DNA of 64,000 bases from Escherichia phage vB_vPM_PD114. Location: sequence record MH675927.1, one strand, 5' to 3'. The translations under genes and the position numbers were made by a program. Shown here piece after piece: positions 4,204-42,066 of this stretch. Each line of letters opens with the position of its first letter. The stretch's first letter is position 1. The notes beneath the pieces are model-generated. The model was not told the origin of the DNA, did no database searches, and worked only from the letters and a program-made list of their open reading frames with translations.

Positions 4204-6165
4204 GTGATTTTAACACGTCCAAATAGTGCCATTGCAGACATGGTAGAGTCTCGCTATAGAAAGCGTAGAAGTTTTGCAAGTGGTTTTACCTTAAGAGATG
4301 CTCGTGAAGCATTGCTCTTTGAAGCTGACGGTAACTACTATCAGTGGAAAGGTTCTCTACCTAAAGTTGTACCTGCTAACTCTACTCCTACATCTACTGG
4401 AGGGATTTCAGATACAGCTTGGAAAAATGTGGGTAATGCAGATGACATTGCTCAAATAGAATCAGAATTAGATGCTATTGAAGCTGAAATTGAAGATCTT
4501 AGAGAATCCATCCCAGAAGCTGGTAAATCAGCTTACCAGATGGCCGTAGACAATGGTTTCCAAGGTACTGAGACACAGTGGTTGGCTTCTTTAAAAGGTG
4601 ATCCAGGTGCTCCATTAAAGCTATTAGGGACACTATCTAATACCAACCAATTACCTACAAGTGGAAACAATGCAGGGGATGCATGGATTGTAGGCGAGAA
4701 TATGTATGCTTGGGATGGTACTGCTTGGAGAAAAGTAAACTCACAGGGGCCAGAAGGTAAATCTGCTTATGAAGTATGGCTTGCAGCAGGAAACGAAGGT
4801 ACAGAACTAGATTATCTTGCCGCAATTAAAGGTGATAAAGGGGAGCCTGGCCCAGAGGGGCCACAAGGTGTGCCAGGTAACAATGCTAATGGTTTTGATT
4901 ACCAAGGTGCAGCTAATTCCGTTTCAGATCTTCCTTCTGCATCTCATGGAAACACATCTCAAGCATGGAGTGTTGGTACATATCTATACGTGTCAAACGG
5001 TGTAGAATGGATCAATATGGGCGCTATAGTGGGGCCAAAAGGAGATAAAGGCGACAAAGGAGATAAGGGTAACACTGGTGATTCAGCTTATCAAGTCTGG
5101 TTAAATGCTGGTAACGTTGGTACTATTGACGAATATATTGCCTCTCTGAAAGGAGAAAAAGGTGATAAGGGAGACAAGGGTGATCAAGGTGAACAGGGTA
5201 TACAAGGCTTGACGGGGCCAACTGGTGCAGGGTTGACCATTATTGACATTCTGACTAGCACTTCTGAACTGCCACAAACTGGAGAAGAGGGTGATGGTTA
5301 TCTGATCAATAATGAACTTTGGGTCTGGTTGCAAGGAGCCACAGAGTGGACAAATGTTGGTCGTTTAGCTGGTACTCCAATCACTGCAAAAGGACACGTT
5401 GCGTCTGCAAGTGCACTTCCTCCTACAGCTAATTACGGTGATGCTTATCTGACGGAAGATACAGGTCATCTTTACATTTACACCTATGATGAACAAACTC
5501 AAACTGCTGAATATGTAGATATGGGTAGTTTGAAAGGTGATAAGGGTGAAAAAGGTGACGCTGGTACTAACGGTACAGACGGTGCAACTTGGATTGTTAA
5601 AACAACAGATCCAATCTCTAGTGATGGTAAACAAGGTGATTATGCCTTTAATATCTCCACTGGCGAGGTGTTCTTAAAAACATCTGCAACTGTCTGGACT
5701 TCTCAAGGTACACTACCTAGTATCACAGATGCACCTAGTGATGGTAAGACTTATGCTCGTAAAGATGGAGCATGGGAAGAACTCACTAGTTCTGTAGATG
5801 GTCAAGATATAGTTCCAACAAAAGTAACAACTAATTTTATAGAGGTTACAGCATATACCAACAATTCTGTTACAGGGGACTGGACACCTCCAGGAACACA
5901 TAACATGAATGTGTTGAATCTTACTGGTAACTCTACTATAAAAGCATGGCCTGGTGTCGAAGATAGCACAAAACCTAAACCATTCTCTGCAATAGTTTAT
6001 CTTATCCAAGATGCCACTGGAGGTCATACTGTTACTTTAGATCCATCTTACAAAGTAATTGGTTCTAGTGATATTAATACAGATCCTAACGGAGTAACAA
6101 TACTACAACTAACATATTGTGGTGTTGGCGATTACGTGGATGCTATTGTTGCTAAACGCACATAA
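4204..6165 (+). CDS. tail fiber protein with collagen-like Gly-X-Y repeats
   Basis: GTG start with GGAG RBS; GDKGDKGDKG and GEKGDKGDKGDQGEQGIQGLTGPTGAG runs; 653 aa. Confidence 0.65.
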   Translation: MILTRPNSAIADMVESRYRKRRSFASGFTLRDAREALLFEADGNYYQWKGSLPKVVPANSTPTSTGGISDTAWKNVGNADDIAQIESELDAIEAEIEDLRESIPEAGKSAYQMAVDNGFQGTETQWLASLKGDPGAPLKLLGTLSNTNQLPTSGNNAGDAWIVGENMYAWDGTAWRKVNSQGPEGKSAYEVWLAAGNEGTELDYLAAIKGDKGEPGPEGPQGVPGNNANGFDYQGAANSVSDLPSASHGNTSQAWSVGTYLYVSNGVEWINMGAIVGPKGDKGDKGDKGNTGDSAYQVWLNAGNVGTIDEYIASLKGEKGDKGDKGDQGEQGIQGLTGPTGAGLTIIDILTSTSELPQTGEEGDGYLINNELWVWLQGATEWTNVGRLAGTPITAKGHVASASALPPTANYGDAYLTEDTGHLYIYTYDEQTQTAEYVDMGSLKGDKGEKGDAGTNGTDGATWIVKTTDPISSDGKQGDYAFNISTGEVFLKTSATVWTSQGTLPSITDAPSDGKTYARKDGAWEELTSSVDGQDIVPTKVTTNFIEVTAYTNNSVTGDWTPPGTHNMNVLNLTGNSTIKAWPGVEDSTKPKPFSAIVYLIQDATGGHTVTLDPSYKVIGSSDINTDPNGVTILQLTYCGVGDYVDAIVAKRT

Positions 6166-10712: not shown

Positions 10713-11306
10713 TTAAATCTTAAATTCTTCGTTGTTAAATGAATCCAGTGTACGTACTTCTGGTTCTTTGGGAATGAAAACGTCTTTTACAAAGCGGAAC
10801 ATAGGGAAACGTTCTGCCATTTTACGGACGTGTGCTTCTTTACCTGTGTATCGGTGATTAATAGTGCAAATATTAGTTTTCAATGCAAACTCAAAATCTG
10901 GATGATATACATAATTTTGACCATCCCAGTAACACAGGCAAATAGCTACGTCAAAGTTCCATACGATTTCACTGCGTACACCCTCTTCCATGATCATAAA
11001 GTTAAACTTAAGGTCTTTATAGTATGCTTCAAATACCCATTTCAAATGTGGTAGTTCGGCATAAGTGTGTTCTGTTTGCTTAGTAAGTTGTTTAACATTA
11101 CGTGCACCAACACCCAACATCAAAAACTTCTCTACTAGCACGAGTGTATTGTGGTTAGGCATACGCAAGTAAATGTCAATGTCTTGTGCAGGTTTCTCTA
11201 ATCGCCAATCACGTACAGCGCCGCCAGCTACAATTGCAAACGGATCTACCAGTTGGCACATACGTAATACTTCTAAAGCGCGTACTTTTTGATCTTCAAT
11301 ATTCAT
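10713..11306 (-). CDS. nucleotidyltransferase of the poly(A) polymerase / tRNA CCA-adding head-domain family
   Basis: Motif VAGGAVRDWRL...DIDIY matches the GGxVRD...DxD signature of PolyA_pol/CCA-adding enzymes; start placed at ATG 11306 (RBS AGGAGA) rather than the upstream GTG. Confidence 0.6.
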   Translation of the reverse strand: MNIEDQKVRALEVLRMCQLVDPFAIVAGGAVRDWRLEKPAQDIDIYLRMPNHNTLVLVEKFLMLGVGARNVKQLTKQTEHTYAELPHLKWVFEAYYKDLKFNFMIMEEGVRSEIVWNFDVAICLCYWDGQNYVYHPDFEFALKTNICTINHRYTGKEAHVRKMAERFPMFRFVKDVFIPKEPEVRTLDSFNNEEFKI

Positions 11307-11314
11307 ATTTTCTC

Positions 11315-11911
11315 CTATCGTTTCCACTCTTTGTGTTGTTCTACATGCTCAAGCATTTCATTATATAGTGCTTTAAGATGTGGAACAACTCTTTCATCTT
11401 CAGTTTCAAAGAATTTTGTAAGCTGCTCTGCCTTAGCTTTCAACCAGCAAAGATGCGCTTCAATTTCAGTATTAAAACGTCCCAGCGTTTTCATGCGACT
11501 GCCTACTTTTATGTTGGCTTTATACTTTTTACGATCTTTCTCGTAACTACAGCCTACCATAGTCCCATGAGATCTTTTACTTACTCTATAAGCTAAGAAC
11601 TTATTAAGATCTCCTGTTACTAAAAGACAGGTATCGGGAGAGTAAACTCTCCCTCCTATAATATCTTTATCAAGTTCTAAGTTTTCCCAGTTATCCCAAG
11701 TTTGCAACCAGGAATAGAAATTGGAGAACAACTTCCATTCTTCACAAACCGTCACCCCCTTATAACAAGGATCACGTTCTTGTTGACAAGGGGAGTAACA
11801 CCTCCCCAACATAGCCATCCATTTCATATAATGCGGCGTTAGTTTCTTACTACCAGGTAGTGTACTCTCGCCTTCCAAATCATTAATACCTTCACTATAC
11901 ACGGTAAGCAT
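11315..11911 (-). CDS. putative homing endonuclease-like protein with AP2-type DNA-binding domain
   Basis: N-terminal WMAMLGRCYSP...YKGVTVCEEW block typical of phage HNH/AP2 endonuclease families; C-terminal YEKDRKKYKANIKVGSRMKTLGRFNTEIEA is AP2-like; adjacent to the DNA polymerase gene. Confidence 0.5.
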   Translation of the reverse strand: MLTVYSEGINDLEGESTLPGSKKLTPHYMKWMAMLGRCYSPCQQERDPCYKGVTVCEEWKLFSNFYSWLQTWDNWENLELDKDIIGGRVYSPDTCLLVTGDLNKFLAYRVSKRSHGTMVGCSYEKDRKKYKANIKVGSRMKTLGRFNTEIEAHLCWLKAKAEQLTKFFETEDERVVPHLKALYNEMLEHVEQHKEWKR

Positions 11912-33931: not shown

Positions 33932-34402
33932 TTAGTCAGATTCCCAAATGTTGTCTTTCTTAACCCACATTCGTTGATTATCTGAACCTCTATAACGTTT
34001 CGTTGTTGGTTGATTCATATCATACTTACCATCTATCACTATGTCAACCAGTTTTTTAATTTTCTCTGGAATTTCTTCAAAAAGATATCCTGTATATAAG
34101 ACAATATCTTTTTTGTTTCCAAAACAATCTCTTACCTTCTCAAGAACATACTCTACAGTGTCAATGTTCTCTTTGTCAAGAGGTTCACCACCTAAAACTG
34201 TTAATCCTTTAATGAAAGGTCGAGATAAATCTTCCAAGATAAGATCTAATGTTTCAGCAGTGAACTCTTGTCCGTAATTATACGACCAGGCTTTCTGGTT
34301 AAAGCAGCCACGGCAACCGTGGCTACAACCGCTCACCCACAAAGAGCATCTTACACCGTCACCGTTGAGCATGTCAACAGGTTCATATCCGGCGTAATTC
34401 AA
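33932..34402 (-). CDS. nrdG: anaerobic ribonucleotide reductase activating protein NrdG (radical SAM)
   Basis: MNYAGYEPVDMLNGDGVRCSLWVSGCSHGCRGCFNQ follows the NrdG N-terminus including the CxxxCxxC radical-SAM cluster; TTG start; 4-nt overlap with nrdD stop. Confidence 0.85.
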   Translation of the reverse strand: MNYAGYEPVDMLNGDGVRCSLWVSGCSHGCRGCFNQKAWSYNYGQEFTAETLDLILEDLSRPFIKGLTVLGGEPLDKENIDTVEYVLEKVRDCFGNKKDIVLYTGYLFEEIPEKIKKLVDIVIDGKYDMNQPTTKRYRGSDNQRMWVKKDNIWESD

Positions 34403-35340
34403 AAATGTTTCTCCCTTTCTAGTACCTCTTGCATTTTACCTTTATTATAAGGGCGAGAGTTAGGAGCAGAAAGGTATCCTGACACTCTTCTGATCACAGA
34501 TATGGATTCTTCTTCATGATTACCGCAACTTGGACACTCGAAGCCTTTAGCCGTTGCTTTAAACTCACCATGAAAACCACATTTGAAACACTGATCTACA
34601 GGTTGGTTCACGCCAAAATAAGGAATTTTGTTGTAGGCATAATCTACAAGAGTTTCCAGTGCTTGCAAGTTATTTTTAAGGTTTGGTGTTTCTACATAAC
34701 CTATGTTCCCACCGTTACTAATTTGTGCAAAACCTTCCTCATAATCCCACTTTTGGAACGGGGTAGTGTGCATCCATACAGGTTGATGGAAAGAGTTTGT
34801 CAAGTAGTCACGATCAATAGAACCAGGATAGCGATCATTTAATGCTTTGGCAAATTTATAGCACAAGGATTCTGCTGGTGTTCCATACAAACTAAAAGCT
34901 AAACCAGAACGTTCTTTAAATGTGCCACAGATATCCTTCATATATTGAAGGATGTTTTTACCCATTGCTTTTGGATTGGTGTTACCTGGGTATAAAATCT
35001 CCATAGCTTCTGCTAAACCTACATAACCGATACTAATAGAGGCATAACCACCTTCGAATAGTTTACCAATCTCTTCATTAGCTTCTAGTCGAGCTAAAGC
35101 CCCTTCCATAAACAATGTAGGGTTTTGAGATGCTTTGGTATGTCTAATACGGTTAACACGTAGCATATGTGCCTTATACGCCATCTCCATATGTTGTTCC
35201 AACAGTTCAGTAAATAAGATGCCCTTTTCACGGGACTCTGCTGCAATGATAGGTAAGTTTAAAGAAACTACGCCTAAGTTGAAACGACCATCATATTTTT
35301 CACCTTGCTCTGTTGCATAGTATGACAAGAAACTTCTACA
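34399..35340 (-). CDS. nrdD: anaerobic ribonucleotide reductase NrdD, exon 2
   Basis: C-terminal zinc ribbon CFKCGFHG...CPSCG and glycyl-radical motif RRVSGYL; exon starts TGT AGA (CRSFLSYY) right after the predicted 3-prime splice site. Confidence 0.8.
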   Translation of the reverse strand, partial: CRSFLSYYATEQGEKYDGRFNLGVVSLNLPIIAAESREKGILFTELLEQHMEMAYKAHMLRVNRIRHTKASQNPTLFMEGALARLEANEEIGKLFEGGYASISIGYVGLAEAMEILYPGNTNPKAMGKNILQYMKDICGTFKERSGLAFSLYGTPAESLCYKFAKALNDRYPGSIDRDYLTNSFHQPVWMHTTPFQKWDYEEGFAQISNGGNIGYVETPNLKNNLQALETLVDYAYNKIPYFGVNQPVDQCFKCGFHGEFKATAKGFECPSCGNHEEESISVIRRVSGYLSAPNSRPYNKGKMQEVLEREKHF

Positions 35341-35619
35341 CATTATGTTCAAAGTGGCTCGCAAGGCCACTCCCGCACCATTACGTGCTGCTGCATGTCA
35401 CCATGCAGATCAGACTATATCTTCATGCTTAAAGCATGTCTACCATTTGGGGTGTCATAGGCTTACACCCTACGCTGCTACATTCATCACAGCTAGTCGT
35501 TAGGCATTTCGTAATAGTACCCCCTTCTTCTGTGTTGGGAGTTCTGTTACGTTTAGCACGGGATTGTCTCGTTGAGAGTTCCCCCGTTTAGGCAGATTTT
35601 ACATGAGCAGTTATAGTTT
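35341..35619 (-). ncRNA. group I self-splicing intron (td-like, no internal ORF) interrupting nrdD
   Basis: 279 nt between the two nrdD reading frames; core-like TAAACGGGGGAACTCTCAACGAGACAATCCCGTGCTAAAC and P7 3-prime element AAGATATAGTC; CTGCATG-GTGA-CATGCAG hairpin near the 3-prime end; ends GAACATAATG; exon 1 ends ...ATGGGT. Confidence 0.75.
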
Positions 35620-36477
35620 ACCCATGCTTGTGACGCGACCATCTGAAGATCCTGTAACTTCTTTGTTTAAAGGTACAGAGATAAAATCAGGATAAATGCG
35701 TTCAGCACAACACTCCATTGCCAGTTGCTTCAAATCATAGTTTGGATCGCCAGCTTTCATGTTAACACCATCTTCCAAGAAGAAGATAACTTTAGGAAAC
35801 ACAGGAGTTACCCTATCTTTTCCTAATCCTTGTTTGTGCACCATTAGGTAGTTTTTAGTGATCATTCTACCAAAAGCAGAGGTATCCAAACCTAAACTAA
35901 TTGTTATAAAAGGTGACTGACCATTTACACTCATTAGAGTGTTCACCTGGTAGATTAAAGTTTGCATTGCATCATAGACCTGTTTATCTACCATACGCAT
36001 AGCAATATCATAATCGCCAACATCGGCATATATTTTATTAAAACTTGCTTTAACGTATTGACTAAGCCCAGTATCAACATGTGCACAAGTTTGTCCACCA
36101 TATTGGCTAGAGGCTACTGCTTGAATAATTTGAGTTAGGACAGTAGTTGCTACACCGATAGATTTTGGTTTTTCAATATGTGCATTACCAATACGGAAAC
36201 CGTTCTCAAGCATATCTTGGTAATTTACCAGGCAACAATTAGTTAGAGGTGAGAGTAAATAATCTAAATCGTGAATGTGACCATACCCGCTTTTATGCCA
36301 TTCTGCCAGATCTTCCGGTAAAATATGGGTCATTGCCATGTGCTTGCTCAGAATACCTGCTAGTAAGTCTCGGTGAGTATTAACAATCATTGCAGGTTTG
36401 TTTGCATTTTCACGAGTAAATTCTTCGGATGTTTGTTCGAGGAATCCGATTACATCCTCATATAGTTTTTGGGTCAT
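35620..36477 (-). CDS. nrdD: anaerobic ribonucleotide reductase NrdD, exon 1
   Basis: Start ATG 36477 (RBS GGAGG); reading frame stops 9 nt into the intron; splicing predicted to join ...RVTSMG to CRSFLSYY..., giving a 599-aa product. Confidence 0.8.
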
Positions 36478-36494
36478 TAATCCTCCGTGGAAAA

Positions 36495-36520
36495 TAAAAG
36501 CCAGCATTAAGCTGGCTTTA
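36495..36520 (-). terminator. rho-independent terminator
   Basis: AAAGCCAGC-TTAATG-CTGGCTTT hairpin followed on the minus strand by TATTTTCC; between 36567-37517 and nrdD. Confidence 0.5.
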
Positions 36521-36566: not shown

Positions 36567-37517
36567 TTAGTCAAGGTTTTTGGTAATACGTGTACAACCG
36601 TCAGAAGTCAAACCGTCAACTTGAGTTTCCCAAGTACCATGAATATTTCGGAACAATGTTGTTACACCTTTTGGTTCATTAATAATGATTGCCATAACAA
36701 GTTTAGGATCGATAACAGACATAATCTTTTCCTCAATACCCTCTGTAATAACATTATTGCGCACAATATTAATTGCATCTTCTTGTACAGTAAGAACACT
36801 TACGTTCTTAAGAGTATATACCTGCTGTGTAGTGTAAATGATACGAACATAACTTACAGAACGAGTAGGCACAGGTTTACGCGGTCGGCGAAAACGTGGT
36901 TTTGGTGAAGATTCAGTTTTACTTTCATCTTTTGAATAATACTCCTCAAACAGTTTAGTAAATGTTTTTACATCAACTACAAACCGATCTTTCCGATATG
37001 GAGAATTCTTATGTGCACCATTAATACCACTGTTTTCATCGAAGAAAGTAATGTTTTCTTCATTTGAATACATTAGATAATGATCTGCATTTTTCCAATG
37101 TGGTTGTGGACAACGAGGATTACAAACGGAAAGCAGATAACTAATATCTTCTTCCGTGGCATCAGTATCCACGAAACACGTATTATGCACAGTCAGTTGT
37201 ACTTTTTCAGCCATATCTTTTTCTTTATCCTCTTTAGCAAGATATTCAGTACGAATAATCTCCAGAAAATTTTCAGGTGTTACTTCCATAAATGTATATT
37301 CAGGATGAAGTTCCATATATTCAAATCCACAACCATCTAACTGCTGTAGAAAGTTAGGGTAGAAGAACAAATCATTAACACTGTGAATCAGATCATTGAT
37401 TTCTGCTTCAGTTGTGTAACCAAAACTCTTGTGAATTGCTTCGTTAAGAATATGCAGGATACCCATCTCTTCTGCTGCTTTTTTAACTTCCAGTTTATTA
37501 GCGTAAAATGCAATCAT
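36567..37517 (-). CDS. hypothetical protein
   Basis: 316-aa ORF with AAGGAG RBS. Confidence 0.45.
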   Translation of the reverse strand: MIAFYANKLEVKKAAEEMGILHILNEAIHKSFGYTTEAEINDLIHSVNDLFFYPNFLQQLDGCGFEYMELHPEYTFMEVTPENFLEIIRTEYLAKEDKEKDMAEKVQLTVHNTCFVDTDATEEDISYLLSVCNPRCPQPHWKNADHYLMYSNEENITFFDENSGINGAHKNSPYRKDRFVVDVKTFTKLFEEYYSKDESKTESSPKPRFRRPRKPVPTRSVSYVRIIYTTQQVYTLKNVSVLTVQEDAINIVRNNVITEGIEEKIMSVIDPKLVMAIIINEPKGVTTLFRNIHGTWETQVDGLTSDGCTRITKNLD

Positions 37518-37534: not shown

Positions 37535-37969
37535 TTAGTTTAAAATTTCTTTTGCAATGGTAGAAGCAAGTTTTCCATCATATTGATTCGGATACTCTGC
37601 TTTAAGGTGTTTCATCATATCTGGCATTTTCTTGCCTGTCAAGGCAAATTCTTCAGCAATAGCTCGAAGATCATCTTCAGATAGCATTTCTGGCAAATAT
37701 TTTTCCAGAGTGGTGATATCACGCATAGCTCGCTCACATTTGCTAATGGAGGCATTAACTTTCTTAAGTGAGTCTAGTTCCTCTTTAGCGTGTGCAATAC
37801 CAATCTTAACAATGTTAATCATAATATCGTCTTCTGATTTGTTTAGATTTGCCTTTTGAGTACGAGCAAGGTCAAACTCACCAATAATATTAGTTAACAA
37901 AGCAAAAGCACCCTTATCGGTTGTACGTGCTAAGATACGATCTGCTTTCATTTGTGTCACAATAGACAT
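37535..37969 (-). CDS. GatB/YqeY-domain protein
   Basis: Pattern ...LEKYLPEMLSEDDLRAIAEEFALTGKKMPDMMKHLKAEYPNQYDGKLASTIAKEIL matches the YqeY/GatB C-terminal domain (YLPxxLSEEEL...MGxVMKxLK...GRADGKxVS). Confidence 0.55.
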   Translation of the reverse strand: MSIVTQMKADRILARTTDKGAFALLTNIIGEFDLARTQKANLNKSEDDIMINIVKIGIAHAKEELDSLKKVNASISKCERAMRDITTLEKYLPEMLSEDDLRAIAEEFALTGKKMPDMMKHLKAEYPNQYDGKLASTIAKEILN

Positions 37970-37981
37970 TCTATTCTCCTC

Positions 37982-38554
37982 TTATTTGCTAATGCTTTGA
38001 ATGTTATTTACAACACGGTTTATTGCCAGTGAAGCCCTAGGCTCCGCAATACCTGTTGCATAGATATAAGGATGACCTTTTGGAGACTCCCTCATACCGA
38101 ATGAACCTAATTCTAAACCATATTCATCCTCTACGTCAACCCCAATATTAGTGGGTACTAAATATGTTTTAACTCCATAATAAGTAGAGAAGAAACAGCG
38201 CATAGCGTTAGCATACTCTTCAATTGTAGCATCAGGGTAGAACTCAATCAACTCCAATTTCAAGAAAATATTAAAATGGGTATCATCTAAATTTTCTTCT
38301 GTACGGTAACATGGCGTTAGTGCCATATACGGATTACCTGCTGCAAATTCAAAACCATCCTTCTCCATTTGCAGGAAAGATTGTTCTGCACTAGCTACAT
38401 AGTATTTACCGTTAGGATGCCCTAATGGGCGATCCTCTTTATTTTCTGGTAGTGTGTACGCCAGTATATCAGCATCCACGAGATATGGAACTTCTAACAT
38501 TTGTGCAAATCGACCATAGTAATCAATAGCTTGAGCTATTACTGCAACATTCAT
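37982..38554 (-). CDS. hypothetical protein; weak class II aminoacyl-tRNA-synthetase-like core resemblance (tentative)
   Basis: Possible motif-2-like TPCYRTEEN...FNIFLKLELIEF and motif-3-like ATGIAEPRASLAI; too short for a full synthetase; start ATG coupled to upstream stop (ATGA). Confidence 0.3.
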   Translation of the reverse strand: MNVAVIAQAIDYYGRFAQMLEVPYLVDADILAYTLPENKEDRPLGHPNGKYYVASAEQSFLQMEKDGFEFAAGNPYMALTPCYRTEENLDDTHFNIFLKLELIEFYPDATIEEYANAMRCFFSTYYGVKTYLVPTNIGVDVEDEYGLELGSFGMRESPKGHPYIYATGIAEPRASLAINRVVNNIQSISK

Positions 38555-38802
38555 GATCGACCTCCGCTACGGAATGCACGTTTAGTAATGTTTGACATAG
38601 TGATCAAATCTTGAAGCGTCATCTCAGGAAAATGCTGTTCAAGAACACCTTCAACAGCGCCTACAATATCTGATAACTCAATAAGTTGCATCAGCTTGCA
38701 ATCTTGATCAATAGCATCTTGAAGTTCATAAAGCTCTTCTTGAATCTTAGCAACAGAACCATATTCCTCTTTGCTAATCTCCTTCAAATGATACCCTGCC
38801 AC
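38551..38802 (-). CDS. MazG-like all-alpha NTP pyrophosphohydrolase (tentative)
   Basis: EExxExxD-type motif (IQEELYELQDAI) and downstream acidic helix typical of short phage MazG proteins; GTG start with AAGGGGGG RBS. Confidence 0.4.
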   Translation of the reverse strand: MAGYHLKEISKEEYGSVAKIQEELYELQDAIDQDCKLMQLIELSDIVGAVEGVLEQHFPEMTLQDLITMSNITKRAFRSGGRS

Positions 38803-38813
38803 TTTAACCCCCC

Positions 38814-41588
38814 TTAGTTTACCAGTTTATTTATGTCTGGTAAAAGATTTATTTCACCTAAGAAATCACCTTCACCTTCCTCTAGCCAACTCTCATATGC
38901 TTGTGCATGATTATAGTTACCATCAAAAGAATCTGCAACAAATTTTTCTACAGTTTTTCGAGATGTGCCAGCGCCAAATACACCAAGTTTAATACCATTG
39001 ATCGGTAAAGTGGTGCTTGTGGGTACTTTCTCTGTTGCAACACGGTTGATATCTATAATCTCCTGTACGGTTGTGTTCCATTGTAAGCATTTAACACAAC
39101 GGGTATGCGCTACATACAGTAGGTTTCGCTCTGCCTCTTCTAGTCCTACCCACTCACCAGTCTTTTTATCATAGTTGGAAGGAAAATCATTAGCAACAAT
39201 AACCTGATCCCACTCCAAACCTTTAGACTTGTGTGCTGTAGTCAATGTGACTTTTGCTGTAGGAGAATTTCTATGCGTTCTAAGTGTATGTGCTATAGTG
39301 TTTGCCTTACCAGAAACTACAATGTTTAACAAGCGTTTAGCATCTGGATCAGCCTCTGCACACTCAACAAATTCATTCCAGTCTGCGTAAGGTAATACAG
39401 TTTCATGTTTTACTTTCTCAATATCTCCTCTCCGAAGAGCATTAACACTATCTACCATAGAGATAAAATCCCTGGTATCTACGTTAATAATAATTTCTTC
39501 CCCATCTGCAATACGATCCATTGCCTCCATAAGCAAGGTTAAATTCTTGCGAAAGATGATAGTGTAAGGTTTTGTATAGTCTACAACATCTGATTTGTAG
39601 CTACCTACTACAGTATCAAAGCCTTTACCAACCAAAGGATGACGCAAAGGTTCTTTATCACTTAAAATCATATTTGCAATGTTTGCCACTTTGGGGCCAA
39701 AACGGAAGCAAGCAGTTAATGGAAGCTCTGCCCCATACTTAGCTGTTTCAATCATCATATTAGAGCTACCTCTAAATTGATAAATGCAGTTGTGGCTAAG
39801 AATTTCATTGCCAAAAAAGTTAGCAGTATCTTCTACTTCAATATCATAATAGATACCCTCACTATCTACAATGTCCACTATCTCTTCTGCCGTTACAGTA
39901 TCACCATCTTTTACTAACACAGACATGCCTTTAAACAAACCCGCTGCCGGAATTAAATTATATTTGGCAGTGTTCACAGAGGACATGCATTCTTTTAAAG
40001 ATGCAAACGGAACTATTTCAAGGATCTTTTGTGCAAAACTCAATGCTTCACGATAAGAATTGAAATATTTACGTACACGGTAACGACCTTCCAATTTAGC
40101 AACACTTACGCTTACACCTGCTTCAATGAGTGAGGCATAGATTGGCATTTCACTTTCTGTCCACTCAAAGCTAACTTGTGTTCCTTTACAACCTTGTGCT
40201 CGCAAAGTCACTGTTAACATTTTTCTTGCATCTACTGCACAATTGATGCTGTGCCAATGTGGATAAGCAAAATGATAGTCTTTATCCTCTAAAAGTTTAA
40301 AACCATTTTGTCCGAATTGTTCAAAGATATTGTTGATCCTTTCTTGATTAATACCGCGTGAACTTGCTTCAAATACACAAGTAGGAATGCCATATTGTAA
40401 ACTGTATGCCATTTCTTTTTCCATAGCAGCTTCACGGTTTTCAACAATATCCAACACCCACAACTTCTGTGCTTTTTCAGAACGTGTACGTTGCCCCAGT
40501 TTAGAAAAACCTTCTTTATCATCGAATTTGTTAGTGATCCCTACTCGGAAACCTAAATCTTTTCTCCACATTAGGTATACCACCATCTGATCATCTTTCA
40601 GAACATAAGGTGAAGCCCAAATACGATGGTTATGTGTCATATCTAAAGTCTTACCTTTAGCAGTAATAATATTCCTACCTTTTGTACGTGTAGATAAAGT
40701 CTTATTTGTTACTTTTCTAAATGTAACTTTACCGTTAGAATAAGACTCTACCTTATCACCGATTTGCAGGTCTTTCATTGTAACCTGACCATTTTCGGTA
40801 TTAAGTACCGTGTTTTCTGACACACATTGGAATTCATCACCAACTACCACAATTTGTTTGGCAGATTTAGCATTCCGCAGAATAGACAAGAATGCAGGGT
40901 TAACATCCTGGAATTCATCCCCAAAAATAATGTCATAACCAAGATCAGCACCAGACAATTCAAACAATTTTACATAGGTGTCATGCGTCATCAAAGTATC
41001 TGTGTTAGGGTCAATGCGCTCTCGCCACAATTGTTTTGCATACTTAACTACTTCTGTAATTAGTTTGTGTTCGTTAATACCTTTTCTTTTAATATCTGCA
41101 AGATGTACACTAGGAAAATGTTTACGGCTGATAAAAGGATCATCCGAAAATTCAAACTTACCTACGGTTTGCTTGATCATTAAACCAATCATAGCACGAG
41201 TTAAAAGTGTTTTCCCTCGTTTATCAATAAGATTATTAATCTTAAATTTCTTTGCTATCTCACTACCTGTACCTGCAACGTTAACATACTGTCCTTCTGG
41301 TCGTGACAGTTTTGCACGTAAACGATGATCCAGGAATTGATAGCAAATGGAATGCAATGTACGGCATTCTACATTTGGTGGCATCTTACGCCGTGCTTCT
41401 TCTGCCATGCTTTTATTGAAAGCTAAGTAAAGAATGCGATCTTCTGTACTGTTAGCCAGCAAATAAAGTGTTGACGTTTTTCCTGATCCAGATTTAGCTT
41501 GGATAGTTAAAAACCGATGATCTGGAAAAGCCTCCTTAATAGCTGTTTGCTCTTCTGTTGGAGTAAAACTCAACTCTTTCTTAGCCAT
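38814..41588 (-). CDS. UvrD/PcrA-like superfamily 1 DNA helicase; contains an intein
   Basis: Walker A AKSGSGKTS, motif II IIFGDEFQD, motif III VVVGDEFQ|...|CIYQFRGSS split by the intein; start at ATG 41588 (RBS AGAGAGG). Confidence 0.85.
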   Translation of the reverse strand: MAKKELSFTPTEEQTAIKEAFPDHRFLTIQAKSGSGKTSTLYLLANSTEDRILYLAFNKSMAEEARRKMPPNVECRTLHSICYQFLDHRLRAKLSRPEGQYVNVAGTGSEIAKKFKINNLIDKRGKTLLTRAMIGLMIKQTVGKFEFSDDPFISRKHFPSVHLADIKRKGINEHKLITEVVKYAKQLWRERIDPNTDTLMTHDTYVKLFELSGADLGYDIIFGDEFQDVNPAFLSILRNAKSAKQIVVVGDEFQCVSENTVLNTENGQVTMKDLQIGDKVESYSNGKVTFRKVTNKTLSTRTKGRNIITAKGKTLDMTHNHRIWASPYVLKDDQMVVYLMWRKDLGFRVGITNKFDDKEGFSKLGQRTRSEKAQKLWVLDIVENREAAMEKEMAYSLQYGIPTCVFEASSRGINQERINNIFEQFGQNGFKLLEDKDYHFAYPHWHSINCAVDARKMLTVTLRAQGCKGTQVSFEWTESEMPIYASLIEAGVSVSVAKLEGRYRVRKYFNSYREALSFAQKILEIVPFASLKECMSSVNTAKYNLIPAAGLFKGMSVLVKDGDTVTAEEIVDIVDSEGIYYDIEVEDTANFFGNEILSHNCIYQFRGSSNMMIETAKYGAELPLTACFRFGPKVANIANMILSDKEPLRHPLVGKGFDTVVGSYKSDVVDYTKPYTIIFRKNLTLLMEAMDRIADGEEIIINVDTRDFISMVDSVNALRRGDIEKVKHETVLPYADWNEFVECAEADPDAKRLLNIVVSGKANTIAHTLRTHRNSPTAKVTLTTAHKSKGLEWDQVIVANDFPSNYDKKTGEWVGLEEAERNLLYVAHTRCVKCLQWNTTVQEIIDINRVATEKVPTSTTLPINGIKLGVFGAGTSRKTVEKFVADSFDGNYNHAQAYESWLEEGEGDFLGEINLLPDINKLVN
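39789..40826 (-). mobile_element. intein in helicase motif III (346 codons)
   Basis: Starts CVSENTVLNTENGQVTMKDLQIGDKV (canonical intein N-terminal block), ends FFGNEILSHN followed by Cys; removal restores VVVGDEFQ-CIYQFRGSS. Confidence 0.75.
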
Positions 41589-41589
41589 T

Positions 41590-42066
41590 TCAACCTCTCT
41601 TAATTTGTTTAACAAGCATAGGAACAAAATCTCGTTTTAAAATTTGTTCAATAATATGATCAGGTAGCTGTTGGAAATTATAATTAAACGCTACTGTCTC
41701 ACCTTTAGGTGTTTCTACCCGCACATATAGCATGTTACGAAGTTTATCCACTTGTGCTGTATATTCTAAACCACGTAATTGATGCATTGCAAACATCAAA
41801 TCCTCAGTTTCAGTTTGGAATCTATCCCTTGTTTGCATCAAGGATAAGGCAAAAGGTAGATTTTCCCTAAGAGCCACCTTCTTAGGCACTAATGAAGGGA
41901 AATACTCCCCAATAACTTCCTGTGTAAGCTGAATACACTCTTTTTCAAGCTGGTTTTGTTCCTTGAGTTCACAAACACTTTTTTGTAAAGTGTTAACCTC
42001 TTTTTGCAAAGCTGCTAGTTGAGCACTTAACTTTCTTTTTTGATTACGACCAAAACGTTTAGACAT
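41590..42066 (-). CDS. hypothetical coiled-coil protein
   Basis: 158-aa ORF. Confidence 0.4.
   Translation of the reverse strand: MSKRFGRNQKRKLSAQLAALQKEVNTLQKSVCELKEQNQLEKECIQLTQEVIGEYFPSLVPKKVALRENLPFALSLMQTRDRFQTETEDLMFAMHQLRGLEYTAQVDKLRNMLYVRVETPKGETVAFNYNFQQLPDHIIEQILKRDFVPMLVKQIKRG

Follow-up and report, generated by a model that had tools for sequence, protein, structure and literature searches.

Introduction

Which of several small adjoining phage genes form one functional unit, and what may this unit do, if deposited genomes name its members after tRNA synthetases and amidotransferases or leave them without a name? The question is raised by a 64,000-nucleotide stretch of DNA from Escherichia phage vB_vPM_PD114 (record MH675927.1; the whole stretch is hereafter called the window), where three consecutive open reading frames (ORFs) occupy the minus strand: a gene for an 83-aa protein with a GTG start (38551–38802), a gene for a 190-aa protein (37982–38554), and a gene for a 144-aa YqeY-domain protein resembling the tail of GatB (37535–37969). 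Their positions had been given exactly in a preliminary description made from the letters alone, which combined all three with a distant CCA-adding-type nucleotidyltransferase into a single functional group. That grouping is not what evolution conserves. The 190-aa protein (“A” subunit) is a class II aminoacyl-tRNA synthetase (aaRS) catalytic core, closest to seryl-tRNA synthetase (SerRS), and the conserved unit consists of this core and the 83-aa protein (“M” subunit), a predicted HisE/MazG-type all-alpha nucleotide pyrophosphohydrolase, their genetic linkage being obligate and extending up to fusion. We favor, with slightly less than even confidence, the reading that the two genes encode two halves of one phage-specific enzyme serving tRNA ends or the maintenance of translation.

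The region shares 99.4% identity with Escherichia phage vB_vPM_PD06 and further phi92-like myophages (Stephanstirmvirinae, Justusliebigvirus). The presence of the 190-aa protein in 272 deposited phage genomes argues that we deal with real genes rather than chance ORFs. There it is named “putative seryl-tRNA synthetase”, “histidyl tRNA synthetase”, “putative tRNA synthetase”, or “hypothetical”; for the 144-aa protein, the records give “tRNA amidotransferase” or “aspartyl/glutamyl-tRNA synthetase/YqeY-like”, and the 83-aa protein is “hypothetical” in every genome. Shine-Dalgarno sequences precede all three genes alike, and the junction of the first two (38551–38565, minus strand), as read from the sequence, is arranged for translational coupling: GGAGG (38561–38565) stands 8 nt upstream of the start codon of the 190-aa gene, which overlaps the stop codon of the 83-aa gene within ATGA. 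No study of the pairing, of the fusions, or of the function was found in the open-access full-text literature; the genes are known as annotations but mislabeled, and the novelty lies in the kind of partner that this synthetase paralogue has.

A Class II Synthetase Core Closest to SerRS

Searches of PDB, Pfam, and NCBIfam with the single 190-aa sequence returned nothing useful, so that profiles and structure prediction were needed. PHROGs assigns the protein to phrog_4806, labeled “histidyl tRNA synthetase”. A profile of 35 homologues retrieved from PDB class II synthetases only, the best being SerRS of A. aeolicus (E 1e-4), and hhalign comparison with E. coli SerRS gave 88% probability (E 3e-6). 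The AlphaFold model is very confident (predicted local distance difference test, pLDDT, 95.1; predicted template modeling score, pTM, 0.89), and Foldseek matched it to the cores of PylRS and SerRS (E ~1e-9, template modeling score, TM, 0.70–0.75). The antiparallel beta-sheet core with motifs 1, 2, and 3, which defines the class II superfamily, is thus present in the protein. The preliminary description had offered its aaRS-like call for 37982–38554 as weak and had named structure prediction with structural search as the check, a model lacking a class II-like fold being the outcome that would speak against it; both approaches yielded a class II synthetase core, and since the fold was found by profile, AlphaFold, and Foldseek alike, the call proves to be right and strongly supported.

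All active-site elements can be located along the minus strand, with conservation expressed here for 266 non-identical family members. The motif 1 region (residues 14–27, GR..LEVPYLVD; 38474–38515) is aligned as GY....VPYLVD with GYSENYVPYLVNQD of E. coli SerRS, VPYLV being identical in both proteins and P23 being kept in 95% of members. The SAEQSF loop (residues 55–60; 38375–38392) is the counterpart of the “TAE” amino-acid-binding loop of SerRS (VASAEQSF aligned with IPTAEVPL), and Q58 is conserved to 98%. Motif 2 (residues 78–101, ALTPCYRTEENLDDTHFNIFLKLE; 38252–38323) is aligned with TPCFRSEAG...HQFDKVE of SerRS, pairing ALTPCYRxE with AHTPCFRSE and FLKLE with HQFDKVE of the E. coli enzyme; its acidic position 86 is occupied by E in 71% and by D in 22% of members, and its loop has lost 6 residues relative to the SerRS enzymes of A. 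aeolicus and E. coli. ELGS (residues 148–151; 38102–38113) corresponds to the metal-binding strand E..S with spacing equal to that in REISSCS of E. coli SerRS, and motif 3 (residues 165–178, YATGIAEPRASLAI; 38021–38062) pairs YGTGLAEPR with LNGSGLAVGR, T167 standing 6 residues before R173 as S391 does before R397 in E. coli SerRS; P172 is conserved to 99%. The tool alignments (hidden Markov model to 2dq3, hhalign to E. coli SerRS) span motif 1, the TAE loop, and motif 2, i.e., the N-terminal half; E148, S151, T167, and R173 were matched to E. coli SerRS by hand because a profile of the C-terminal half alone gave no SerRS match.

Twelve positions are 100% conserved, namely, S55 and E57 of the loop, C82, R84, F97, K99, and E101 of motif 2, E148, G150, and S151 of ELGS, and T167 and R173 of motif 3. 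They include, of the features expected for class II enzymes, the motif 2 Arg, the adenine-stacking Phe, and the motif 3 Arg, to which the acidic residue at position 86 is added, and all signatures of SerRS (TxE loop, TPCFRxE, FxKxE, E..S, and (T/S)G.A..R) are found as well, those of the C-terminal half by manual matching. We take these positions to be the motif 2 Arg and Glu, the stacking Phe, and the motif 3 Arg of T. thermophilus SerRS and, presumably, the Glu and Thr holding the serine hydroxyl together with the Glu/Ser metal site of SerRS. Invariance of this catalytic-type set indicates a probably active enzyme rather than a decayed paralogue, and the alignments show the protein as a direct descendant of SerRS.

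At the same time, the core is strongly reduced. In the alignment, residue 14 is set against residue 186 of the E. coli enzyme, and since the protein begins at motif 1, the N-terminal coiled-coil arm, by which SerRS recognizes the long variable arm of tRNA-Ser, is absent; the stretch separating motif 2 from motif 3 is shorter than in SerRS by about 30 residues, and the full-length motif-2 loop contacting the acceptor stem is missing as well. Compared with SerRS, having a core of ~260 and a whole length of 430 residues, a coiled-coil tRNA-binding arm, and a longer motif-2 loop, the phage core comprises ~180 residues, dispenses with both, needs a HisE/MazG-like partner, and occurs only in viruses. 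The label of histidyl-tRNA synthetase (HisRS) given by PHROGs and GenBank was rejected, as neither a HisRS-type best match nor a C-terminal anticodon-binding domain was found, and the protein should not be filed as either seryl- or histidyl-tRNA synthetase. The catalytic domain of PylRS (PylSc) is similar in being a top Foldseek match (E 1e-9, TM ~0.7), in having a comparably short motif-2 loop (CYRKE..H..F), and in working as a stand-alone core with the separately encoded tRNA-binding protein PylSn; it differs by its ~270–290 residues, a large pyrrolysine pocket, and a partner that is a tRNA-binding domain, not a pyrophosphohydrolase. EpmA (GenX/PoxA) and GluQRS (YadB) are likewise truncated synthetase paralogues that keep activation and use a non-canonical acceptor (a lysine of EF-P and queuosine in tRNA-Asp, respectively), but they derive from LysRS and the class I GluRS, are ~300 aa long, act alone, and are cellular. 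To our knowledge, the phage protein would be the smallest natural class II core retaining a complete active site. Engineered “urzymes” have a size near that of this ~180-residue core, which bears on the question of how little protein amino-acid activation needs.

A further possibility is a non-catalytic or protein-directed role. The core could be a HisZ-like regulator or a decoy heterodimerizing with host SerRS and borrowing its tRNA arm across the dimer, it could aminoacylate a protein as EpmA modifies EF-P, or it could load the 83-aa protein as amino acid:[carrier protein] ligases do. The motif 1 identity with E. coli SerRS fits the decoy, as tRNA binding by SerRS reaches across the enzyme dimer, and a conserved C-terminal tail of the partner (F..G.R), which stays free in both split and fused forms, also agrees with roles of this kind; full conservation of catalytic residues argues against a pure regulator. 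HisZ itself is non-catalytic and binds HisG (HisZ–HisG–HisE), whereas the phage core has invariant catalytic residues and a SerRS rather than HisRS signature, and no HisG homologue was seen among the conserved neighbors of the pair, so that its identity with HisZ was rejected. Of all readings considered in this study, we give the roles listed here, together with the loading of a carrier discussed below, the smallest credence.

The Partner Protein Carries a HisE/MazG-Type Metal Site

The family of the 83-aa protein is phrog_6408, function unknown in PHROGs. Its first metal-binding motif, EExxE..D, is EELYELQD (residues 22–29; 38716–38739, minus strand), aligned with lvEEvgEL of MazG and vaEEaaE of HisE, and the second, ExxD, is ELSD (residues 42–45; 38668–38679, minus strand), aligned with EELAD of MazG. 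In 63 diverse members, Y4, H5, I9, K19, E22, E23, E26, E42, and D45 are invariant, and both acidic motifs lie on two helices, as is characteristic of all-alpha nucleoside triphosphate (NTP) pyrophosphohydrolases. The protein of the window matches Pfam PRA-PH below the cut-off (E 0.034, 15 bits against 21.3); across the 63 members, 45 match PRA-PH at E<0.1 (best 2.8e-5) and 7 match MazG, no other Pfam family recurring in more than three of them. A profile built from the 63 sequences found in PDB MazG of S. solfataricus (1vmg) and HisE (2a7w) as the best matches, aligned exactly on the acidic motifs, while a 20-sequence profile found no match there and hhalign comparison with E. coli MazG was negative; in general, the family scores closer to HisE than to MazG. 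The assignment as a minimal HisE/MazG-type pyrophosphohydrolase with a putatively intact EExxE...ExxD metal site is, consequently, a well-supported prediction, and the earlier recognition of a short MazG-like pyrophosphohydrolase at this place was correct.

The same data bear on the loading of the 83-aa protein by the core. Amino acid:[carrier protein] ligases (Bll0957, Atu2573; PDB 3mey) are served by a phosphopantetheinyl carrier, whereas the partner described here has the HisE/MazG metal motif and no invariant serine; the phage core is, in addition, ~100 residues shorter than these ligases and resembles bacterial-type SerRS in sequence. The only candidate for a phosphopantetheine site, S44 in ELSD, is A, C, or T in many members, and Pfam scans of the family gave no PP-binding match. 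The variability of S44 together with the predicted HisE/MazG fold and its invariant acidic site implies that the partner is not a carrier protein, and this role was ruled out.

A pyrophosphohydrolase of this kind might instead control alarmones. It would degrade (p)ppGpp or dinucleoside polyphosphates, while the core would sense amino acid and ATP or make Ap4A-type compounds, the stringent or abortive-infection response being blocked as a result. Class II synthetases are able to make Ap4A from the aminoacyl-adenylate, and serine limitation is a classic trigger of the stringent response; both facts agree with this possibility. The phage MazG-like protein Atd1 depletes (p)ppGpp and guards against TIR-STING toxicity (bioRxiv 10.1101/2022.06.09.495361), thus exemplifying a small phage enzyme of MazG type with an anti-defense role; unlike the 83-aa family, it stands alone, with no link to a synthetase-like protein. 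Since free-standing MazG enzymes suffice for such a task, obligate pairing and fusion with a full adenylate-forming site would be left without explanation, and the family stands nearer to HisE in its scores; we therefore consider alarmone control highly improbable.

In four jumbo-phage contigs (155–578 kb), the 83-aa partner was found fused to a ~200-aa N-terminal domain with an invariant HxH...H pattern (HDH, then FHRT), the fusions occupying 7070–8017 in contig L040, 7163–7990 in L051, 6953–7858 in L055, and 8567–9436 in L052. This domain corresponds to phrog_4784, weakly related to a PHROG labeled cysteine dioxygenase; it gave no Pfam match and no sequence match in PDB.

Core and Partner Are Linked up to Fusion

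To follow the association across viruses, 80 viral loci were fetched with the core profile (102 viral contigs encoded a relative) and complemented by loci from other look-ups, making 87 in total. By profile search, a member of the 83-aa family adjoins the core on the same strand in 84 of them; six-frame search of the three others revealed, immediately upstream of the core, the partner at one locus and a 37-aa remnant at a second. In the reverse test, seeded on the 83-aa family, the core was no farther than 3 kb away in 67 of 68 loci, the sole exception being cut by the contig end. In the non-redundant set of loci, the partner precedes the core in 62 cases and follows it in 11, and the two are fused in 5; of 73 unfused pairs, 57 abut, and the median gap is −2 nt. 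Altogether, 14 fused proteins from about 10 lineages were collected, all with the core first and the partner second, and for most of them the nearest unfused relative is closer than the nearest fused one. The adjacency of a MazG-like gene had been noticed in the preliminary description, where it figured as the third neighbor only; this minor place does not stand, since the pair is kept at nearly all loci.

A 261-aa relative (P0036) was rejected as a partner fusion, and extra domains on longer family members gave no Pfam clue. In one metagenomic contig (L006), a gene for a 242-aa radical-SAM-like protein (4273–5001; Pfam E 4.4e-6, just below threshold) is placed between partner and core; PHROGs gave no match for it, and it was not met again at other loci.

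YqeY and the Distant Nucleotidyltransferase Are Outside the Conserved Unit

The 144-aa protein was rightly called a GatB/YqeY-domain protein in the preliminary description, as it matches Pfam PF09424 (YqeY) above the gathering score (E 5.3e-7, 30.3 bits against 27) and, in PDB, B. subtilis YqeY (1ng6, E 1e-4) and 8xjg (E 0.01). Its PHROG label of GatB/tRNA amidotransferase was rejected: Pfam finds the YqeY/tail domain only, and with a length of 144 aa there is no room for the GatB body with its catalytic cradle. The “CCA-adding” ORF, positioned earlier at 10713–11306, does exist, with a real extent of 10713–11327 (minus strand, 204 aa), some 27 kb from the pair; its identity is less certain, the match being confined to the PolyA_pol head domain and below threshold (E 0.0018, 19 bits against a cut-off of 23).

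If these two proteins, the core, and the MazG-like protein form one set for tRNA repair or aminoacylation, YqeY may bind tRNA in trans for the arm-less core. Domains of the YqeY/GatB-tail type are indeed tRNA-binding modules that enhance tRNA binding (PMC1865053, PMC2811023), and the YqeY gene lies directly downstream of the pair here and two genes from it in one distant contig, where YqeY is 28% identical and the contig’s proteins in general are 28–38% identical; Caulobacter phages CcrSC and CcrBL9 also have both the pair and YqeY. Its overall distribution is nevertheless at odds with this set. Adjacency is limited to 5 of 87 loci, representing two lineages (the phi92/Justusliebigvirus group and the distant contig), and the closely related phAPEC8-type group has the pair, no match to YqeY exceeding 60% identity there. 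Of the 151 phage records with YqeY, most come from Vibrio, Sinorhizobium, and jumbo phages, and most are in groups not seen among pair carriers. Together with the remoteness and sub-threshold score of the nucleotidyltransferase, this makes a four-protein set quite improbable; YqeY as an obligate partner was rejected by distribution, and it is a lineage-specific neighbor of the conserved unit.

Distribution and Genomic Neighborhood of the Pair

Approximately 1,597 clusters (50% identity) match the core family at E<1e-3, and 1,081 do so at E<1e-30; among the matches listed, lengths are mostly ~175–200 aa with some fusions of 260–275 aa. The 272 deposited genomes include E. coli Stephanstirmvirinae with their Pectobacterium, Cronobacter, and Erwinia relatives, ~165-kb Acinetobacter phages such as Acj61, Caulobacter CcrColossus-like phages, Brevundimonas jumbo phages, and Microcystis phages. 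A search of 185,579 species genomes gave 15 core matches, all on contigs of metagenome-assembled genomes (MAGs), and no cellular homologue outside of them. The core family is restricted to viruses. Fused or paired copies were also noted on short IMG/VR contigs named GVMAG and binned as giant-virus MAGs (L086/L154 and L155), which could mean either that the family reaches eukaryotic giant viruses or that phage DNA was mis-binned.

As for the neighborhood, of 60 loci about 20 have a tRNA gene within 8 kb of the pair and 8 have one within 1 kb, several pairs being inside tRNA arrays; by a rough estimate, this means a 3–4-fold enrichment. BLAST clustering of ~2,500 neighboring ORFs and Pfam scans of 120 and 104 neighbors, aimed at a third conserved gene, brought out a single candidate, the nucleotidyltransferase RlaP (PF10127, phrog_388), found 0.3–5 kb from the pair in 13 of 87 loci of several lineages (L002, L014–L017, L020, L026, L040, L042, L051, L055, and L057 are listed). 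Some of these loci also hold genes of Rnl1, PNKP-phosphatase, and CCA type (PolyA_pol-type). For RlaP, the predicted task is the restoration of nucleotides where RNA ends have been damaged (PMC7824862).

Other neighbors belong to nucleotide metabolism, and with them comes the main rival to a role at tRNA ends. The pyrophosphohydrolase may turn NTP or deoxynucleoside triphosphate into monophosphate, in the way MazZ serves PurZ in Z-genome phages, and the core may then join an amino acid to the nucleotide; the product would be an aminoacyl-nucleotide, a precursor of a modified base, or a compound that mimics a nucleotide immune signal or competes with it. The alpha-phosphate of NTP is the site of action of both enzymes, and the fact that they are tightly coupled and even fused suggests that they act one after the other on a single small substrate. 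The pair has no tRNA-binding domain, the HxH...H domain on the partner in four jumbo-phage loci hints at small-molecule chemistry, and genes of nucleotide metabolism are often nearby (NrdD/NrdG in the window; ribonucleotide reductase and thymidylate synthase at other loci). A phage MazG-type enzyme accompanied by a second enzyme using ATP is known from MazZ–PurZ, where PurZ also uses an amino acid, and from T4 dCTPase–dCMP hydroxymethylase; the second enzymes of these systems are adenylosuccinate-synthetase-like or thymidylate-synthase-like, whereas that of the pair is class II aaRS-like, and we know of no fusions in either system. What counts against this pathway is that no further enzyme of it is conserved beside the pair and that the residues contacting the alpha-amino and hydroxyl groups of serine in SerRS are kept, by which the donor looks like an ordinary amino acid but which point to no acceptor. 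Such a pathway appears to us unlikely.

Proposed Function

According to the favored reading, in which the two proteins act as halves of one enzyme at tRNA ends, the core would use ATP to form seryl-AMP or the adenylate of another small amino acid closely resembling serine; like other class II enzymes, it is probably dimeric. Bound to the pyrophosphohydrolase, it would transfer the aminoacyl group to an acceptor of adenosine type, for which the 3′ end of tRNA is the most likely candidate and a free nucleotide the alternative. The pyrophosphate bond to be cleaved by the partner would belong to the acceptor, to the product, or to a competing nucleotide. The purpose of this activity might be to keep translation running during infection, either by tRNA maintenance or as a counter-defense. 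YqeY, an add-on in the phi92 lineage, might lend affinity for tRNA and would not be required by the system.

A tRNA-directed role draws support from the tRNA genes and RlaP located near some of the pairs and from YqeY being close to the pair in two distant lineages. Several observations weigh against the favored proposal. The core lacks a tRNA-recognition domain, all its conserved basic residues belonging to the active site, and both proteins are overall acidic, though no more so than the core of E. coli SerRS, which means that net charge does not discriminate between tRNA and small-molecule substrates. There is no tRNA gene in the window, and most loci have neither tRNA nor RNA-repair genes nearby, neighbors besides the partner being heterogeneous. 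Serine is the putative substrate by residue correspondence with SerRS, which draws in part on manual alignment and on SerRS structures. Finally, we know of no tRNA reaction that needs a MazG-type enzyme bound to a synthetase, and for this reason the role ascribed to the partner is a guess.

A more far-reaching version, which we hold to be doubtful, regards the pair as an unrecognized two-component aminoacyl-transfer enzyme, where a ~180-residue serine-activating core and a bound HisE/MazG-type partner would recharge or repair tRNA 3′ ends or make an aminoacyl-nucleotide, in this way defeating translation-targeting immunity. The 3′ ends would be served without a canonical tRNA-recognition domain, for example, after host toxins have pyrophosphorylated or extended the CCA end. 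If this version is true, large phages use the pair to overcome immunity directed at translation.

Whatever the acceptor, the annotation of a large virus-only family is affected, as its carriers among sequenced phages include therapeutic-candidate coliphages as well as Acinetobacter phages, and the labels “histidyl” or “seryl tRNA synthetase” are not apt for it in the usual sense; treating the core and its partner, now labeled “unknown function”, as one unit corrects this. A nucleotide pyrophosphohydrolase would be a new kind of partner for synthetase paralogues that left translation. Being obligate in unrelated large phages of Proteobacteria and Cyanobacteria, and often placed near tRNA arrays and RNA-repair genes, the pair is a candidate for an activity in host takeover or counter-defense.

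Other Features of the Window and Related Contigs

Just upstream of the pair, the gene for a 937-aa UvrD/Rep-type helicase (38814–41627, minus strand) contains an intein, which is annotated in the relative JohannJBalmer, the mature helicase of that phage being put together from two pieces. Between the YqeY gene and nrdD, a 316-aa protein (36567–37517, minus strand) is labeled “ribonucleotide reductase” in PHROGs (phrog_15930); neither Pfam nor NCBIfam matches it, curated records list it as “hypothetical”, and the label looks unreliable. Further on, a group I intron (35391–35665, minus strand; Rfam RF00028, full-length model, 72.5 bits, E 1.4e-17) is situated between ORFs 34399–35370 and 35611–36507 and splits nrdD, the gene of anaerobic ribonucleotide reductase, which is a single uninterrupted coding sequence in JohannJBalmer.

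Among the relatives, several “Campylobacter phage” records with C. jejuni as the host (MG065689, MG065639, MG065656, and others), all of 146,366 bp, match these proteins of phi92-like E. coli phages with 98–100% identity, and the host given there may be a mislabel or reflect contamination. Some jumbo-phage contigs with the pair have tRNA genes with the amber-reading anticodon CUA (L050 1980–2053, L055 967–1123, and L058 12956–13030); ARAGORN labels them “tRNA-Pyl”, which hints at reassignment or suppression of the stop codon in those phages.

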